Shown here piece by piece: positions 853-47,542 of a DNA stretch of 64,000 nucleotides. Location of the stretch: the NCBI GenBank assembly GCA_001029715.1, contig CP011212.1, positions 398,936-462,935 on the forward strand, given 5' to 3'. Under the pieces are notes generated by a model. That model made no database searches and was not told where the DNA came from. It saw only the letters and a program-made list of their open reading frames with translations. A program made the position numbers and the translations under genes. Position 1 is the stretch's first letter. Every line of letters starts with the position of its first letter. Origin of the DNA: a candidate division TM6 bacterium GW2011_GWF2_28_16. Lineage in GTDB: Bacteria; Patescibacteriota; Microgenomatia; UBA1400; PJMF01.

Positions 853-1992
853 ATGAGTAACACTACCCTTCTAATATTATGTTTGTTTTTGATTTCAATT
901 TTAGCGACTTTTTATTTTTTGCTAAAAAAACTTTTGTCAGAAAAAAATTCAGAGCAATCTAGTGAACAACTGGAAGATATGGTTCACAAAGTTTTTGGCA
1001 TGGCTTCTAATGAAATTGCTATTCAAAGTAAAGGTATCCTGCAAGGTGAGAAAGATTTAATCAAGAATGATCTCTCTAATAAACAAGCTGCGATTGAAAA
1101 GATGATAAAAGATTTACGTCAAGAAATGGGTGACCAACAAAGAGAAATTCGTGCTATTGAAAAAGATCAGATTGATAAAATTAGTGGAGTTAAAACAGCT
1201 GTTGAAGAGCATCGCCAATTAACCAAGGAACTAAAAATTTCTACAGAGCAACTGGCCAAAGTTTTATCCAATAATCAGACTCGTGGAGCCTGGGGTGAAC
1301 GCATTATTGAAGATTTGTTGCAGGCCAATGGCTTGCAAGAAGGCATTCATTATCTACGTCAAGCTAAATTGGGCGCTTCAGAAATGAAGCCAGATATTAC
1401 CCTGCTTTTACCAGACCATCGCAACGTGGCAGTTGACGTTAAATTCCCGTATCAAGAAGTTCAAAAGATGTCGATGACTGAGGATCAGAGTGAAAAACAA
1501 AGTCATGTTTTGCAATTTAAAAGAGATCTTAAAATTAAAGTAGACAAAGTAGCTACCTATATTTCTCCAGAAAACGATACTTTAGATTACGCAATTATGT
1601 TTGTGCCAAATGAAGCTCTGTTTTCCTTTATCAATCAAAAGTTCCCAGACGTTATTGATGAGGCTTTAGCTAAAAAAGTAATTATTTGTTCGCCTTTTAG
1701 TTTCTTAATTGTGGCTCGCACAGTGATGGAAAGTTATCGTAACTTTATGGTGGGTAAAAAAATCAAACAAGTTATCAAACACATTGATGCTTTTGCAGGA
1801 GAATGGTTAAAATTTGACGATGAATTTTCTAAGTTTGGACGTAGTATCGAAACTTTGCAAAAAAACTACGAAACTCTTTCAACCACGAGGAAAAGACAGA
1901 TGGAAAAGAAGATTCAAAAGATTGAACAGTATCGCGGTAGTTCAGTAGAATTATTGGAAGATGGTGAAAAAGTTAAACTTCTAGAAGATTAA
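853..1992 (+). CDS. rmuC: DNA recombination protein RmuC
   Basis: N-terminal TM helix, a long coiled coil, then AWGERIIEDLLQANGLQEG..Y..Q....KPDITLLLP....VDVKFP, which matches the RmuC nuclease-like core. Confidence 0.8.
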   Translation: MSNTTLLILCLFLISILATFYFLLKKLLSEKNSEQSSEQLEDMVHKVFGMASNEIAIQSKGILQGEKDLIKNDLSNKQAAIEKMIKDLRQEMGDQQREIRAIEKDQIDKISGVKTAVEEHRQLTKELKISTEQLAKVLSNNQTRGAWGERIIEDLLQANGLQEGIHYLRQAKLGASEMKPDITLLLPDHRNVAVDVKFPYQEVQKMSMTEDQSEKQSHVLQFKRDLKIKVDKVATYISPENDTLDYAIMFVPNEALFSFINQKFPDVIDEALAKKVIICSPFSFLIVARTVMESYRNFMVGKKIKQVIKHIDAFAGEWLKFDDEFSKFGRSIETLQKNYETLSTTRKRQMEKKIQKIEQYRGSSVELLEDGEKVKLLED

Positions 1993-3128
1993 TCGTTTAA
2001 ATATTTTTCAAAAAAGCTAAGATCTTTTTGGACAGCTTGATTCCAATTGGGTTGTAAATTGTGATTAGCGCCTGGATATTTGTAGAAGTCAATATTTATT
2101 ACTTCCTTTTTTACTTCTTCCGCACTTTGACTGGCATCTGCGTTTTGAGCGCTAGTTGTAGCTCTCAATTCATTTTCTAAATCTACTTTAGCCAAAAATT
2201 CTTCTGTCCAAGAAATTAAGGCTGAGTCATCAGCAGTGCCATGTTGGATTTGAATCGGTCCATTTAATTTGTCTAAATGTTTGGTCAGCGAAAAATCAAA
2301 AACATCGTAATCATCCTCAAAAAGTGAAACATATTTACGAGTCTCTTTACCCTCATCTCCATATTCGTCACTGAAATAAAGAATTGAATATGGGAAAGGC
2401 ACCAGAACTGGTGCCCAAAGAGTAGTAGGCAGATTGCTACCAAGAACTTCTAGAGTAGAGATTGCAATTTGTCCACCATTACTATGTCCCCAAATGCCGA
2501 TTTGACTTGTATCAACGCTAACTTTTTTAATTGTTAGTTCAGTAATTTGACTAAGATCTATTTCTGGAAATGTTTGAATTGTTTTAATGAGATCAACTGC
2601 ATTGACGACTTTAATAAATCTAGCTTCCCAAGTATCAGTTGGCTCGGGATCACTTTCACCAAAGCCAAGAAAATCTGGAGCTAAAGTGAGGTAGTCGTTT
2701 TCTGCAAAGACAGCAGCAACATTTTTAGTACCTTCTCCAGAGTAATATGTTTCTAGAGGAACATAACCTCTAATCATTATTATGGTTGGTTTTTTTGTGT
2801 TCTCATTATCTATTTTCAAATTAAGTGCACCGGAAATTTTTTTACCCTGACTTTGATAAGTAAAAAGTAGGGCATATGTTTGCGTGTCCAAATCTTTAGA
2901 GATAATTTTTTCAATTCTGATTGGTGATGATACTTTAAATTCTTGTTTGCTTAAATTTTCAAAAGAATATTTAAGCAGTGGCAATGGTTTTTCTGTTTTT
3001 ATTTGTTTAACAATACTTTTTGCCAGAGGAGTTGATTCATTTTTTAAATAAAAATAAGCGATTAAAAAAGAAAGACAGCTACTTATTATCAATAGTAAAC
3101 ATATGAAGATTATTTTTTTTGTTTTCAC
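1989..3128 (-). CDS. Membrane-anchored alpha/beta hydrolase (S9 / dienelactone-hydrolase-like)
   Basis: N-terminal TM helix. Nucleophile elbow GHSNGG, a later GTADD acid and a GANHNL histidine give a Ser-Asp-His order typical of the alpha/beta hydrolase fold. Confidence 0.7.
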   Translation of the reverse strand: MKTKKIIFICLLLIISSCLSFLIAYFYLKNESTPLAKSIVKQIKTEKPLPLLKYSFENLSKQEFKVSSPIRIEKIISKDLDTQTYALLFTYQSQGKKISGALNLKIDNENTKKPTIIMIRGYVPLETYYSGEGTKNVAAVFAENDYLTLAPDFLGFGESDPEPTDTWEARFIKVVNAVDLIKTIQTFPEIDLSQITELTIKKVSVDTSQIGIWGHSNGGQIAISTLEVLGSNLPTTLWAPVLVPFPYSILYFSDEYGDEGKETRKYVSLFEDDYDVFDFSLTKHLDKLNGPIQIQHGTADDSALISWTEEFLAKVDLENELRATTSAQNADASQSAEEVKKEVINIDFYKYPGANHNLQPNWNQAVQKDLSFFEKYLND

Positions 3129-3256
3129 TCAGCAAATTATAGCAGTCTTGCTAACTTTTCTTCAAAATTGATGCTTGCTAAAATACCAGATCATATTTAA
3201 AATCTTTCAACATGTCGTTAATTACAAATTACTCCCATTTTTTCTTGGTCATTTTG

Positions 3257-3340
3257 CGCAAGAACGTTGCGGGGTAATCTTGTTGCATTAAAACAGATAA
3301 AAAACAAGAACAAGCCCCGCCTTAAGAAGCGGGTTTTTTT
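3257..3340 (+). promoter_or_regulatory. Attenuator-like leader with three mutually exclusive hairpins ending in an intrinsic terminator
   Basis: Hairpin CGCAA(3257-3261)/TTGCG(3267-3271). A 12-bp helix is formed by GCGGGG(3269-3274)+CTTGTT(3279-3284) with AACAAG(3309-3314)+CCCCGC(3315-3320). The terminator is CCCGC(3316-3320)/GCGGG(3329-3333) followed by T7 (3334-3340). Neighbouring helices share bases, so they cannot coexist. Confidence 0.4.
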
Positions 3341-3476
3341 GTATTTTTGATCTTTAACATTAACTAAGGGCTACTTTAGTCTTCAATTATTTGAAAGTTA
3401 AGGTAACCCTTTGTGGCTAGAGCAAATCAGCGCTCTAGTTTCGAAGGGAAAATTTTTCATGGTGGAGGAGAAAACA

Positions 3477-3590
3477 ATGGCAATAGGCAAGGGTAAGCAA
3501 AAAAAGTCTTCCGAACATTTGCCGAGATGCCCCCTTTGTGGGGGAAAACACAGGGCAAAATATTGTCCAAGAAAGCAAAAACCCTCTTAA
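3477..3590 (+). CDS. Small basic protein (37 aa) with a CCHC zinc-knuckle-like motif
   Basis: ATG 3477 is preceded by GGAGGAG (3464-3470) with a 6-nt spacer. Translation is MAIGKGKQKKSSEHLPRCPLCGGKHRAKYCPRKQKPS (C-x2-C-x3-H-x4-C), with TAA at 3588-3590. It is followed by a perfect 11-bp hairpin at 3596-3623. It falls below the ORF-track length cutoff. Confidence 0.45.
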   Translation: MAIGKGKQKKSSEHLPRCPLCGGKHRAKYCPRKQKPS

Positions 3591-3642
3591 CCAAAGCCTC
3601 CGGTCCAGTAATGGACCGGAGGCAACAACATTTATTTTGACC

Positions 3643-3692
3643 AGGATCCTTAATTTTTAAATATTTGAAATTTAAGAATCCTCGTTTTTTTT
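3643..3692 (+). terminator. Rho-independent terminator candidate
   Basis: Imperfect long stem AGGATCCTTAA../..TTAAGAATCCT (3643-3682) followed by CG and T8 (3685-3692). Confidence 0.55.
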
Positions 3693-3754
3693 CTAGAGCT
3701 AGCGCAAAGCGCGCCAATCTTTGGAAAGAGGAAATCTTTTTGGGAGGGTCGTCG

Positions 3755-3811
3755 ATGAAGAAAGATAAGAAGAAGAAAAAAGGACATCGTAATAAAAAAG
3801 GCAACAAGTAG
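3755..3811 (+). CDS. Tiny lysine-rich ORF (18 aa), MKKDKKKKKGHRNKKGNK
   Basis: ATG 3755 is preceded by GGGAGGG (3742-3748) with a 6-nt spacer, and TAG is at 3809-3811. Its very short length and low complexity mean coding status is uncertain. Confidence 0.3.
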   Translation: MKKDKKKKKGHRNKKGNK

Positions 3812-3838
3812 TCGCCTTTAGGTGTCCAACCCTCAATC

Positions 3839-3870
3839 TTTGGTGGCGCCATTTATTTGGCGCCACCAAA
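3839..3870. repeat. Perfect 13-bp inverted repeat (stem-loop or operator), TTTGGTGGCGCCA-TTTATT-TGGCGCCACCAAA
   Basis: Read directly: 3839-3851 is the exact reverse complement of 3858-3870. There is no U-tract on either strand. It lies about 47 nt upstream of the aspS -10 candidate. Confidence 0.85.
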
Positions 3871-3917
3871 ATCTTTCCCTTCCTATATTATCTAAAACCT
3901 CTTTTTCAAATTTCGGT

Positions 3918-3923
3918 TATAAT
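3918..3923 (+). promoter_or_regulatory. Candidate -10 box (TATAAT) for aspS, implying a leaderless or near-leaderless mRNA
   Basis: A consensus TATAAT sits 11 nt before the aspS ATG (3935). No Shine-Dalgarno is present between them, and the -35 is weak. Confidence 0.35.
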
Positions 3924-3934
3924 AACTCTTACCT

Positions 3935-5356
3935 ATGCAAAGAACTCTCGTTATTGATTCCTTAGAAAAAGTTGGTCAAACTGTTCGCCTCTGTGGTTGG
4001 GTGGATAGCAAGCGTGATCACGGTAAAGTTACTTTCATTGATTTAAGAGATCGTACTGGCAAGATCCAGGCCGTTGGTATTGGTGGCAAATTGAGTGAGT
4101 TAAGCAATGAGTCAGTTGTTGAAATCACTGGACCAATCAATACTCGTGGCGAAAAAATGGTCAACCCAAATTTGCCAACTGGCTCCATAGAGATTTTTGT
4201 TGAAGATTATAAGGTTCTCAATAAGGCAGCTGAGCTACCAATTCTTGTGGAAGGTGATGGTCGTGATGTTAATGAAGAGATGCGTCTTAAGTATCGCTAT
4301 TTAGATTTGCGTCGTGAGAGAATGCAAAAAATTGTGCGCTTGCGCTCTAAATTTTATCAAGCTCTTCGTGAGCAATTAGAGAAAAAAGATTTTACCGAAG
4401 TTGAAACTCCAATGTTGACCAAATCAACTAAGGAAGGAGCTCGTGATTTCATCGTGCCTTCTCGTTTTAATCCTGGTAAATTTTATGCTCTTCCGCAAAG
4501 TCCTCAACAATATAAACAATTATTGATGACGGCTGGTGTTGAGAATTATTATCAATTTGCTCGTTGTATTCGCGATGAAGATTTACGTGCTGATCGCGGT
4601 TTTGAATTTACTCAGCTTGATCTCGAAATGAGTTTTGTGACTCAACAAGAAGTAATGGATAATGTCGAAGAAATTGTCAAAAATGCTGTCAAAAAAGTTG
4701 GCGCCAAACTCAAAGATGAAGTTTTTCCAGTTATTCCTTACAAAGAAGCAATTGAAAAATATGGTGCCGATAAATTTGATTTGCGCAGTGAGGAAGAAAA
4801 AAAAGAAAATGTTTTAGCTTTTGCTTGGGTGGTTAGTTTCCCATTCTTTAAAAAAGTTGATAAAAAAGACATTGCTGAAGTGCGCGATGGTAAGAGTGGT
4901 TGGACTTTCACTCATAATCCTTTTTCGAGTCCAATTCCAGAATCTATGGAAGATCATAAGAATGCTGAAAATATCGAAAATATTATTACCGCTCAGTATG
5001 ACTTGGTCTGTAATGGTTACGAAGCAGGTGGCGGCAGTATTAGAGCTCATGATCCAGAAGTTCTTAAAAAGACCTTTGAAATCATGGGTTATAGTGATCA
5101 GGAGATTGAAGCCAGTGTGGGCCATATGTTGGAAGCTTTTAAATTGGGCACTCCTCCCCATGGTGGAATTGCTTTAGGACTAGATCGCTTAGTAATGCTT
5201 TTGGCAGGAGAGAATTCACTCAAAGAAACCATTGCTTTCCCAATGAGTTCTTCTGGCAAGACCTCTATCATGGACGCACCAAGCGAAGTTTCTGATGAAC
5301 AACTCAAAGAGTTAGGTATTCTAATCGCTCCTAATTTAGCTACAATGAAAAAGTGA
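3935..5356 (+). CDS. aspS: Aspartyl-tRNA synthetase, bacterial-type catalytic core lacking the GAD insertion domain
   Basis: OB-fold N-terminus, LRLKYRYLDLRR, QSPQQYKQLLM, motif 2 CIRDEDLRADRGFEFTQLDLEMSF and motif 3 GGIALGLDRLVMLL. It is only 473 aa: YGADKFDLR is followed after about 10 aa by WVVSFPFF, where E. coli AspRS has a roughly 130-aa insertion. Confidence 0.92.
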   Translation: MQRTLVIDSLEKVGQTVRLCGWVDSKRDHGKVTFIDLRDRTGKIQAVGIGGKLSELSNESVVEITGPINTRGEKMVNPNLPTGSIEIFVEDYKVLNKAAELPILVEGDGRDVNEEMRLKYRYLDLRRERMQKIVRLRSKFYQALREQLEKKDFTEVETPMLTKSTKEGARDFIVPSRFNPGKFYALPQSPQQYKQLLMTAGVENYYQFARCIRDEDLRADRGFEFTQLDLEMSFVTQQEVMDNVEEIVKNAVKKVGAKLKDEVFPVIPYKEAIEKYGADKFDLRSEEEKKENVLAFAWVVSFPFFKKVDKKDIAEVRDGKSGWTFTHNPFSSPIPESMEDHKNAENIENIITAQYDLVCNGYEAGGGSIRAHDPEVLKKTFEIMGYSDQEIEASVGHMLEAFKLGTPPHGGIALGLDRLVMLLAGENSLKETIAFPMSSSGKTSIMDAPSEVSDEQLKELGILIAPNLATMKK

Positions 5357-46574: not shown

Positions 46575-46764
46575 ATTACCGCTTGCGCTGATTCTCAATT
46601 CTTGCTACTTTAATTATTGCTGTGGAACATAGTGAAAATCTATGACTGTGCCGCAACGGTAATTCCTTTTTAAGGATTAGTCCGATCTTCAGCAAAAGAG
46701 AAATCTTGACGAGCATCGAGGCTGTATATTTTACTGTCGATGCTCCCTAAAGGGGAGCTTTTTT
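46575..46764 (+). ncRNA. Candidate structured RNA (riboswitch-like leader or sRNA) ending in an intrinsic terminator
   Basis: A long-range helix pairs ATTACCG-c-TTGCG (46575-46587) with CGCAACGGTAAT (46652-46663). Internal hairpin CATAG/CTATG, and hairpin TCCTT/AAGGA. A 9-bp helix GAGCATCGA(46711-46719)/TCGATGCTC(46737-46745) shares 4 nt with the terminator GCTCCC(46742-46747)/GGGAGC(46753-46758)+T6. Confidence 0.4.
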
Positions 46765-46780
46765 GTTCAAAGAACCACGG

Positions 46781-46799
46781 CTATTAATATTATTAATAG
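46781..46799. promoter_or_regulatory. Perfect 19-nt palindrome CTATTAATATTATTAATAG over a candidate -10, nested in AACCACG/CGTGGTT arms (46773-46813)
   Basis: Read directly. Candidate promoter TTGTTC(46763-46768)-16 nt-TAATAT(46785-46790). The RBS AAGAAAGG and ATG 46841 follow. Confidence 0.5.
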
Positions 46800-46840
46800 T
46801 TATCTTCGTGGTTAATTTCTGCGAAGTAAGAAAGGTTTTT

Positions 46841-47542
46841 ATGAACACAAAAGCTATCGAAATGGCAGGCAGTATTGGAATTGAGCTAAGCCAAATAAAT
46901 TCAGAATGGACTTCTCTTCAAAGCATTGATTCTTCTTCAATATTAGAGAATGCAGGTAAGGAAGCAGGCATAGAAGATCGTCAGTGGCAAAAATTGCTTT
47001 CTCAAGCTGGTTCTTGGGTGATTGATGGTTTGGATAAAAAGATATTTGAAATACAAAATAAAGTAATTGAGCAAACAACTGCCATTGAGTTAAGAAAAAT
47101 GTTTGGTGTTCCACTTTCATTGCTAGCAATGCCTGTTTTTGTAGAGTTGGCAGGAATGGAATTGGCAGCGAAAATTGATTTGAAAAAAGAAGCCATGATG
47201 ACCTCTCAAATTTGGGAACAAATTAATAACAGAGTTTTATATATGGTTCAACTTTTCTTAGCAGAGCAAATCAATTTGGTCGAAGATGAAGAAAAAGCTC
47301 ATCAGAGTGCTTTGAGTGAATCAAAGAAAGAAGCCGACGGAGTCTCTGGTTTATCAGAAACGGTGGGAGCTGTGGAGAATCAATTTGCTTCAAAGCTGGA
47401 AAAACTAAAAGATAAGAAAGAATCTTTAATAAGTGTTTTCAAAAAGATTGGTGGAGATTTAGTTAATACTGTTGAGAGAGCTTTTGAGACTACTGTTTTT
47501 AGTGCGAGTAGGCAAAGTACTGCTGTTACGGTGATTCAATAA
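46841..47542 (+). CDS. Hypothetical helical protein (233 aa from ATG 46841)
   Basis: The track ORF begins at a TTG inside the terminator/promoter region. ATG 46841 has the RBS AAGAAAGG. No family recognised. Confidence 0.5.
   Translation: MNTKAIEMAGSIGIELSQINSEWTSLQSIDSSSILENAGKEAGIEDRQWQKLLSQAGSWVIDGLDKKIFEIQNKVIEQTTAIELRKMFGVPLSLLAMPVFVELAGMELAAKIDLKKEAMMTSQIWEQINNRVLYMVQLFLAEQINLVEDEEKAHQSALSESKKEADGVSGLSETVGAVENQFASKLEKLKDKKESLISVFKKIGGDLVNTVERAFETTVFSASRQSTAVTVIQ

Follow-up and report, generated by a model that had tools for sequence, protein, structure and literature searches.

A predicted plus-strand operon of micro-genes, with a candidate leaderless attenuator and a covarying 5′-UTR motif, upstream of aspS in a candidate phyla radiation bacterium

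The window analyzed here comprises 64,000 nucleotides of the candidate division TM6 bacterium GW2011_GWF2_28_16 (contig CP011212.1), and the locus in question is the gap at 3129–3934 that separates a minus-strand alpha/beta-hydrolase gene (1989–3128, Peptidase_S9-like according to Pfam) from the divergent aspS (3935–5356, plus strand), the aspartyl-tRNA synthetase (AspRS) gene that forms the 3′ boundary of the gap. The first-pass annotation of this DNA had pointed to some 800 nt of spacer in a tightly packed region and had proposed an unannotated small-protein and/or small-RNA locus. The gap indeed measures 806 nt; no other gap between open reading frames (ORFs) of at least 150 aa in the window is as large, the next being 462 nt and the median 59 nt. 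We found that its plus strand carries a leader ORF of 21 codons at 3212–3277, which had escaped notice, and two tiny ORFs led by Shine–Dalgarno (SD) sites, ORF37 (3477–3590) and ORF18 (3755–3811). In addition, the hairpins at 3369–3448 and 3643–3732 turned out to be two paralogous copies of one 5′-untranslated region (5′-UTR) motif. On the sequence evidence we have little doubt that these are real, conserved small genes with a real RNA motif, and we consider it probable that the gap is a compact plus-strand operon of three micro-genes under two layers of cis-acting RNA control. The small-protein and small-RNA proposal is thereby borne out by the conserved ORF37, the third-position changes in ORF18, and the covarying hairpins upstream of each.

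A scan for aspS with one genome kept per species yielded 80 loci for comparison (labeled L001 and so on). The order of hydrolase (minus strand), a gap of 0.5–1.3 kb, and aspS is kept in at least 10 of the closest loci, which belong to the Patescibacteria. By blastn, the DNA of 3131–3457 is 76–87% identical in four relatives and that of 3593–3876 is conserved in two. The DNA of ORF37 cannot be aligned by blastn, yet tblastn, a search proposed with the first-pass annotation along with an Rfam/Infernal scan and a covariation test, locates the peptide motif in the corresponding position of seven relatives. ORF37 encodes a basic 37-aa CCHC zinc-knuckle micro-protein (MAIGKGKQKKSSEHLPRCPLCGGKHRAKYCPRKQKPS). 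The six residues of C-x2-C-G-x2-H-x4-C-P are invariant in eight syntenic orthologs of 21–50 aa, preceded by a Lys/Arg-rich N-terminus, and CPxCG is present in four of the eight. In the window's ORF37, the putative zinc ligands are Cys18, Cys21, His25, and Cys30. The codons of the invariant residues vary, with all four Pro codons, three Gly codons, TGC and TGT for Cys, and CAC and CAT for His, while the intervening residues change freely; such a pattern is that of selection on the encoded protein. In the 1.48 M six-frame residues of all loci, there are nine occurrences of the motif, each of them at ORF37.

ORF18 encodes an 18-aa Lys-rich micro-protein (MKKDKKKKKGHRNKKGNK). Eight nucleotides distinguish it from its L014 ortholog: seven are third codon positions, and one is an ATG/GTG exchange in the start codon. 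Lys-rich peptides resembling ORF18 are also encoded in L005 (MKKDKKKKRGH...) and L008 (MASKKKKSRNEKNGK...). The SD sites of the two genes, GGAGGAG at 3464–3470 and GGGAGGG at 3742–3748, lie exactly 6 nt before the ATG codons at 3477 and 3755. They had been called the strongest in the window, where they are unique nearly but not strictly: GGAGG followed by an ATG 3–10 nt on is found in the whole window at ORF37, ORF18, and one 202-aa ORF only.

Both small genes are covered by a minus-strand ORF of 131 aa (3457–3852), which the first-pass annotation had set aside as antisense read-through and which public annotation lists as a gene in L001 (4523–4918), L002 (1667–2062), and L003 (1677–2072). It has no Pfam match, and stop codons disrupt it in two relatives, L014 and L005; the annotated gene is therefore probably a mis-annotation. 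One could still suppose that this ORF is the real gene and that the remainder of the gap is functionless, made of terminators, repeat debris, and chance ORFs, given that gene callers picked the 131-aa ORF and that an A-rich region favors chance Lys-rich ORFs. We find this hardly credible. The sequence comparisons contradict it on four counts, namely the broken 131-aa ORF, the covariation of the hairpins, a motif that is unique rather than a dispersed repeat, and the synonymous codon changes, with the zinc-knuckle residues invariant across DNA too diverged for blastn.

None of the small peptides reaches the cut-off of a Pfam or NCBIfam family. The zinc-knuckle alignment has no match among 5.8 billion clustered proteins, and a phmmer search of ORF37 against 1.84 billion representatives returned three long heterogeneous proteins, which are not homologs. 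A profile search of the PDB placed the eIF3g zinc knuckle (CRLCGNDHMTMNCP) first, with the same spacing (E = 0.0098), followed more weakly by the first knuckles of uS14 type Z and bL32 (E = 0.02–1.9). Spacing and flanking residues are identical between ORF37 and the eIF3g knuckle (PDB 6zu9_r, 4u1e_G, and 2mjc_A; the C-terminal part of PF12353), and the basic context, typical of RNA-binding knuckles, is common to ORF37, eIF3g, and the retroviral and cellular zf-CCHC knuckles. However, the eIF3g knuckle is one domain of a large factor, whereas the ORF37 family consists of free-standing bacterial peptides of 21–50 aa. The match is also short and borderline (PDB E = 0.01; with PF12353, 15.1 and 16.1 bits where the cut-off is 24.4). 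ORF37 is thus described here as a predicted CCHC zinc knuckle with eIF3g-type spacing, a description that does not amount to evidence of homology or common descent with eIF3g. The classical zf-CCHC knuckle has four residues between the second Cys and the His where ORF37 has three; the spacing C-x2-C-x3-H-x4-C holds in all eight orthologs, and PF00098 is absent among the matches at E ≤ 10. A reduced bL32 or uS14 was considered and rejected, for only the generic C-x2-C-G knuckle aligns and the NCBIfam S14-Z model gives 13.1 against 77 bits. A single-sequence AlphaFold model of ORF37 has middling confidence (predicted local distance difference test score of 74), and a Foldseek comparison of this model with the PDB gave nothing usable.

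Zinc-finger micro-proteins with CPxCG motifs, such as Brz, have been described in haloarchaea (PMC2253796). They are likewise very small, basic, intergenic, and often missed by annotation, but contain two CPxCG pairs, whereas the bacterial ORF37 has one half-site followed by H-x4-C. The NCBIfam model of the haloarchaeal family HVO_0416 scores ORF37 at 10.2 bits against a cut-off of 80.

The 5′-UTR motif is approximately 85 nt long. It opens with a long hairpin (B1), continues with a two-tier hairpin (B2) whose GUGGCU ... UUUCGA internal region is conserved, and leads through a purine-rich linker to the SD. Copy 1 occupies 3368–3453 and scores 88.9 bits with the covariance model R1, which we built from the copies; copy 2, at 3642–3732, scores 56.9 bits, has its first hairpin followed by U8, and is present in the window, L014, and L005. 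The first-pass annotation had listed fragments of these structures: its hairpin at 3416–3437 is the upper stem of a longer hairpin at 3407–3448, and that at 3643–3692 is a palindrome with 25-nt arms followed by U8. In an alignment of 15 copies from 10 loci, RNAalifold assigns 24 pairs, 16 of which show compensatory changes. Altogether 92.6% of the alignment cells are paired compared with 30–59% when the pairing is slid, and none of 500 shuffles reaches any of the measures. Abundant G–U pairs fix the structure to the plus strand. In 730 kb of sequence, R1 matches only in front of these small ORFs, and hence we regard the motif as a specific cassette leader rather than a dispersed repeat; the model also recovered an unseen copy in L086 (80.6 bits). 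Except in L008, whose 5′ UTR differs, the motif precedes each SD-led tiny ORF in these gaps. It matches no Rfam family and neither pairs with the SD nor occludes it.

Three other identities for the motif were examined and dropped. A sigma-54 or sigma-70 promoter (TGGC..GC, TTGAAA) is at odds with the covarying stems and with the G–U pairs, which indicate plus-strand RNA, and has no support from the promoter scans; a kink-turn in B2 lacks the tandem G–A; and a dispersed repeat or miniature inverted-repeat transposable element would have left another copy in the 730 kb searched with R1. Genes for ribosomal and RNA-binding proteins are known to carry structured 5′-UTR leaders that act as autoregulatory operators. 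Like such leaders, the motif has covarying hairpins with conserved internal-loop nucleotides, placed just ahead of the SD of genes whose products are very basic. The differences are that it lacks an Rfam ribosomal-protein match, that its SD is unsequestered, and that the peptides are not recognizable ribosomal proteins. Most likely, the motif would either set mRNA stability or be bound by a factor acting in trans, which might be one of the basic peptides.

Each cassette comprises the motif, a near-consensus SD, a tiny ORF, and a strong hairpin, and one or two cassettes are present among the relatives without any change in aspS. In L011 (3667–3750) and L013 (3380–3481 and 3712–3804), the same motif precedes Cys4 zinc-ribbon peptides, e.g., MARAWCRKCQRVTVFKNGQCQRCCRGK. 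These are the first cassette of L013 and the second cassettes of L011 and L013; the Zn_Ribbon_1 model matches them at E = 2e-4, below its cut-off, and C-x2-C-G...CPY is common to the L013 Cys4 ORF and the corresponding ORF of L011. Close relatives thus differ in the set of zinc ligands that their cassette ORFs encode. In L005 (3276–3344) and L086 (approximately 3223–3303), the place of the zinc knuckle in the first cassette is taken by an ORF rich in Lys and poor in Cys (MARKKKPSGEKKSHQKKK...). A metagenome scan with the terminator sequence returned four loci, of which L085 resembles L014, L086 resembles L005, and the other two are chance terminators.

All hairpins listed by the first-pass annotation exist within 0–2 nt of where it had placed them, with one correction, the stem at 3596–3623 having 12 bp and not 11. 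This perfect hairpin lies 5 nt after the ORF37 stop codon, and a perfect 13-bp hairpin followed by AAAUCUUU lies at 3839–3870, where it is kept in L014 and L005 with a different loop. Both lie on the plus strand, and both strands of the 64 kb contain no other perfect stem of at least 9 bp with at least five G–C pairs. Fold stability is likewise unusual, with z = −3.4 for 3210–3480 (0 of 200 shuffles as stable) and z = −7.9 for 3585–3885 (0 of 100). Hairpins of different sequence follow every ORF37 ortholog in the equivalent position and score as terminator-like in L007, L011, and L024. We accordingly describe the 3596–3623 hairpin as a predicted terminator or 3′ stabilizer of the ORF37 message, and that at 3839–3870 as a predicted operon terminator. 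Downstream of most hairpins that follow the small ORFs stands (A/U)AAUCUUU and not a plain U-run; this trail is found in the window at 3871–3877 and at the cassette hairpins of L004, L007, L010, L011, L013, L014, and L024. The 3596–3623 hairpin differs in being trailed by AACAACAUUUAUUUUG. A further short element, AAUCUUUGG, recurs at 3717–3725 and 3834–3842.

The first-pass annotation could not equate the region with tmRNA, RNase P, SRP RNA, or a T-box, and neither could we. The Rfam scan of the whole window has no match within 3050–4000 at gathering thresholds, a negative that extends to 6S RNA, the amino-acid leaders, and the riboswitches; at E ≤ 10, the same interval holds only sub-threshold leader and terminator look-alikes, the best being Phe_leader at 24.3 against 55 bits. 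ARAGORN finds no tRNA or tmRNA in the gap.

Upstream of the first cassette, the promoter scan identified TTGCTA-17-TAAAAT at 3175–3203 (plus strand), conserved in five close relatives. Transcription is predicted to start at the ATG at 3212 or 1–2 nt before it, essentially on the first codon of the leader ORF (MSLITNYSHFFLVILRKNVAG), and we infer that this ORF is translated from a leaderless mRNA. The leader ORF is intact in nine loci, with 21 or 25 codons. In all nine, its ATG lies 7–9 nt after the −10 box (TAAAAT or TATAAT) of a TTGCnn-17 promoter, with no SD. A hand count over codons 6–21 in the six 21-codon sequences of alignment A5 gives 11 variable sites at the third codon position, compared with four at the first and three at the second.

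The leader overlaps the segment 3257–3340, which the first-pass annotation had described as separate stem-loops. The sequences are as described, including the CGCAA/UUGCG hairpin at 3257–3271, but we read them as alternative helices of one attenuator with four regions (1, 3228–3235; 2, 3269–3284; 3, 3309–3320; and 4, 3329–3333 plus U7). Helix 1:2 (3228–3278), the putative anti-antiterminator, was seen in minimum-free-energy folds and pairs AUUACUCC (3228–3235) with GGGGUAAU (3271–3278), enclosing an inner hairpin. It has 81% of cells paired compared with about 50% when slid, and two compensatory pairs (UA/CG and CG/UA). Helix 2:3 (3269–3320), the putative antiterminator, pairs GCGGGG (3269–3274) and CUUGUU (3279–3284) with AACAAG (3309–3314) and CCCCGC (3315–3320), with 92.6% of cells paired compared with about 55% when slid and one compensatory pair. 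Helix 3:4 (3316–3340) is an intrinsic terminator found by the terminator scan, in which CCCGC (3316–3320) and GCGGG (3329–3333) enclose an 8-nt loop and are followed by U7. Its stem is invariant in the nine loci, and the weak Rfam look-alikes of the Phe, Trp, and Leu leaders terminate at this hairpin. The leader stop codon (3275–3277) sits within the 5′ strand of helix 2:3, and in all nine loci it falls in or just after region 2. All three helices lie on the plus strand.

Unconstrained ViennaRNA folds give helix 1:2 together with the terminator in most of the nine loci. When a ribosome footprint is masked at the stop codon, the terminator alone forms in nine of nine, and when the ribosomal P-site is placed at codon 12, the antiterminator forms in nine of nine. 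Helix 2:3 also appears in the nascent-RNA fold of five loci, compared with all nine in the stalled-ribosome fold. Such folds suggest the following course. Without a ribosome, helices 1:2 and 3:4 would form and transcription would end at about 3340. A ribosome that has reached the stop codon would cover region 2, helix 3:4 would form, and transcription would end again. A ribosome delayed at about codons 6–13 would cover region 1 and leave region 2 free, so that helix 2:3 could form and polymerase could read through. Most transcripts would thus end near 3340, the exception being those on which a ribosome is held up early in the leader, and slowed elongation would switch the operon on. The read-through RNA would carry the one or two cassettes, with the hairpins at 3596–3623 and 3839–3870 ending or stabilizing the messages. 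No promoter-like site was found between the terminator and ORF37 in the scans of the window and of L007, while L024, which has no leader ORF, has a perfect TTGACA-16-TATAAT promoter upstream of its motif; ORF37 would therefore be reached by read-through of the terminator.

The arrangement is that of the trp, pheA, and leu attenuators, with a short 5′ ORF, three mutually exclusive helices, a hairpin with a U-run, and a stop codon whose position decides which helix forms. Attenuators whose short ORF is leaderless, as predicted here, are reported from mycobacteria (bioRxiv 10.1101/834739). The locus differs from the known attenuators in that its leader has no codon run, that micro-proteins rather than biosynthetic or resistance genes lie downstream, and that it shares no sequence or model similarity with them. 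Classical amino-acid attenuation was dropped as an explanation for want of that codon run; the leader, if it is an attenuator, would consequently sense general stalling or a specific nascent peptide.

Several observations weigh against this scheme. Only nine related sequences back helix 1:2, which in two of five shuffle measures does not exceed the shuffles. Covariation barely supports the antiterminator and the terminator, since both hardly vary. Unlike the leaders of classical attenuators, MSLITNYSHFFLVILRKNVAG has no codon run for one amino acid. RNA pairing can explain part of the apparent amino-acid conservation of the leader, and the Rfam leader models stay far below threshold (24 against 55 bits). 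Cassettes occur without a leader ORF in L008, L009, and L024. A weak promoter is predicted at 3637–3665, and the cassettes might have unrecognized promoters. The ORFs behind the motif vary among CCHC, Cys4, and Cys-free Lys-rich peptides, a variety that argues against simple autoregulation by one product. The first-cassette ORF of L005 and L086 holds two hairpins, and an A8 versus A9 tract alters its C-terminus; this ORF is perhaps in decay, or perhaps an RNA element. With these points taken into account, the helices and their position relative to the leader ORF leave us leaning slightly towards ribosome-mediated attenuation at the leader.

Some of the same observations would fit a different organization, in which 3210–3340 is a stand-alone trans-acting small RNA or a dual-function micro-peptide gene and the cassettes are independent units with promoters of their own. 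The terminator is strong and does not vary, the cassettes of L008, L009, and L024 stand without a leader unit, the site at 3637–3665 is promoter-like, if weakly, and attenuator-derived RNAs that act in trans are known (PMC6614838). However, every leader unit is followed at 20–45 nt by a cassette of the same orientation, with no promoter-like site between the two, and the conserved antiterminator overlaps the stop codon and the terminator. We therefore judge independent units unlikely, and retain the attenuated operon as the preferred reading.

The position of the cassettes directly upstream of aspS in all relatives raises the question of whether the tiny ORFs serve to tune aspS in cis, as upstream ORFs or leader peptides with functionless products. 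In keeping with this, aspS has no SD, and the invariant Asn codon of the leader could report the charging of Asp/Asn-tRNA if AspRS is non-discriminating. On the other hand, aspS has a −10 box of its own (TATAAT, 3918–3923, plus strand), 11 nt before the ATG at 3935 and within the block TTTCrGTTATAATA, which is invariant in the five closest loci (alignment A1), and one to three strong hairpins stand between the ORFs and aspS. In addition, a purely cis-acting upstream ORF would not need conservation of zinc ligands with free synonymous change, and the number of cassettes shifts between one and two without any change in aspS. Control of aspS by these ORFs is thus very improbable. A T-box or an Asp-specific leader for aspS was also rejected, there being neither a model match nor Asp codons. 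In the operon reading, aspS would start separately from its own −10 box.

The operon would yield a CCHC zinc-knuckle peptide of 37 aa, rich in Lys and Arg, and a poly-Lys peptide of 18 aa, and for both the most plausible role is binding to RNA or to the ribosome. Their composition and the knuckle make nucleic-acid or ribosome binding a tentative assignment, which we put forward with less confidence than the operon itself. More speculative still, and in our estimate improbable as a whole, is a hitherto unknown, lineage-specific translation-stress module of the candidate phyla radiation (CPR), made up of the motif and the zinc-knuckle, Cys4, and poly-Lys peptides, in which stalling on the leaderless leader ORF would induce SD-dependent ribosome- or rRNA-binding peptides that feed back via the motif; the peptides would then be comparable to bTHX, bS22, bL37, or small rescue or hibernation factors. 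If the peptides are ribosome-associated, this would bear on how the reduced translation apparatus of CPR bacteria handles stress.

What the sequence and its comparison among relatives show directly are the ORFs, the motif, and the alternative helices with their conservation. Each component is of a known kind, namely a leader-peptide attenuator, a structured leader, and a zinc-finger micro-protein, while none of them matches a described family. CPR genomes are known almost solely via automated annotation, which skips ORFs shorter than about 30–40 codons and RNAs for which there is no model. Here, three conserved micro-genes and a structured RNA motif have gone unannotated, and a spurious antisense gene has been called in their stead. 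The predicted leaderless attenuator, the new covarying 5′-UTR motif, and a 37-residue zinc-knuckle peptide that can be synthesized offer testable handles on CPR regulation.

The locus also brings together two regimes of translation initiation, in which most window genes are apparently leaderless or SD-less and the micro-genes have near-perfect SD sites. Most long genes of the window have no SD, and SD sites are rare. The first-pass annotation had remarked that aspS and gltX lack an SD, which is correct; both have a −10-like box 6–12 nt before the start codon instead. More generally, in 15 of the 26 long ORFs with a good −10 hexamer in the upstream 40 nt, the hexamer ends 6–12 nt before the start. 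Examples of such leaderless-type starts are 3128 (minus), 3935, 5353, 6274, 7398, 23506, and 32429 (minus)/32454, and further ones are 42369, 44069 (minus), 48786 (minus), 52223 (minus), and 62031 (minus). The position of the −10 boxes together with the rarity of SD sites suggests that the mRNAs of this CPR genome are as a rule leaderless or nearly so. A full-text literature search found no paper on leaderless versus SD starts in Patescibacteria.

The hydrolase gene conforms to the same pattern. Its promoter, TTGAAG-18-TGcTATAAT at 3136–3165 (minus strand; 10 of 12 matches plus TG in the promoter scan), has a −10 box that is conserved in alignment A1 and ends 7 nt before the GTG at 3128, and the hydrolase mRNA is therefore predicted to be leaderless. 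Between the hydrolase gene and the cassette, several relatives carry a conserved ORF of about 68 aa (..PTPTRTAVEKFT.E.G...G..GWL.CLLK.Q..HDSSR..), located at approximately 2582–2790 in L008, 3310–3512 in L009, 2803–3012 in L011, and 3388–3588 in L024; it is not in the window and has no Pfam family.

On the other side of the gap, the AspRS encoded by aspS is 79–90% identical to the AspRS of about 12 metagenome-assembled genomes labeled Microgenomates/Pacebacteria, the type of Patescibacteria genome to which the window belongs, and the identical protein is present on 14 public contigs. Freshwater samples such as SRR6482096 and JGI 3300025000 carry this lineage. The protein has 473 aa with a single uninterrupted match to the class-II core (residues 113–438, Pfam), and it therefore apparently lacks the insertion domain typical of bacterial AspRS. 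Elsewhere in the window, an AdoCbl (B12) riboswitch at 46597–46756 (plus strand) scores 55.6 bits, above the gathering threshold, with an ORF at 46763–47542 directly downstream.

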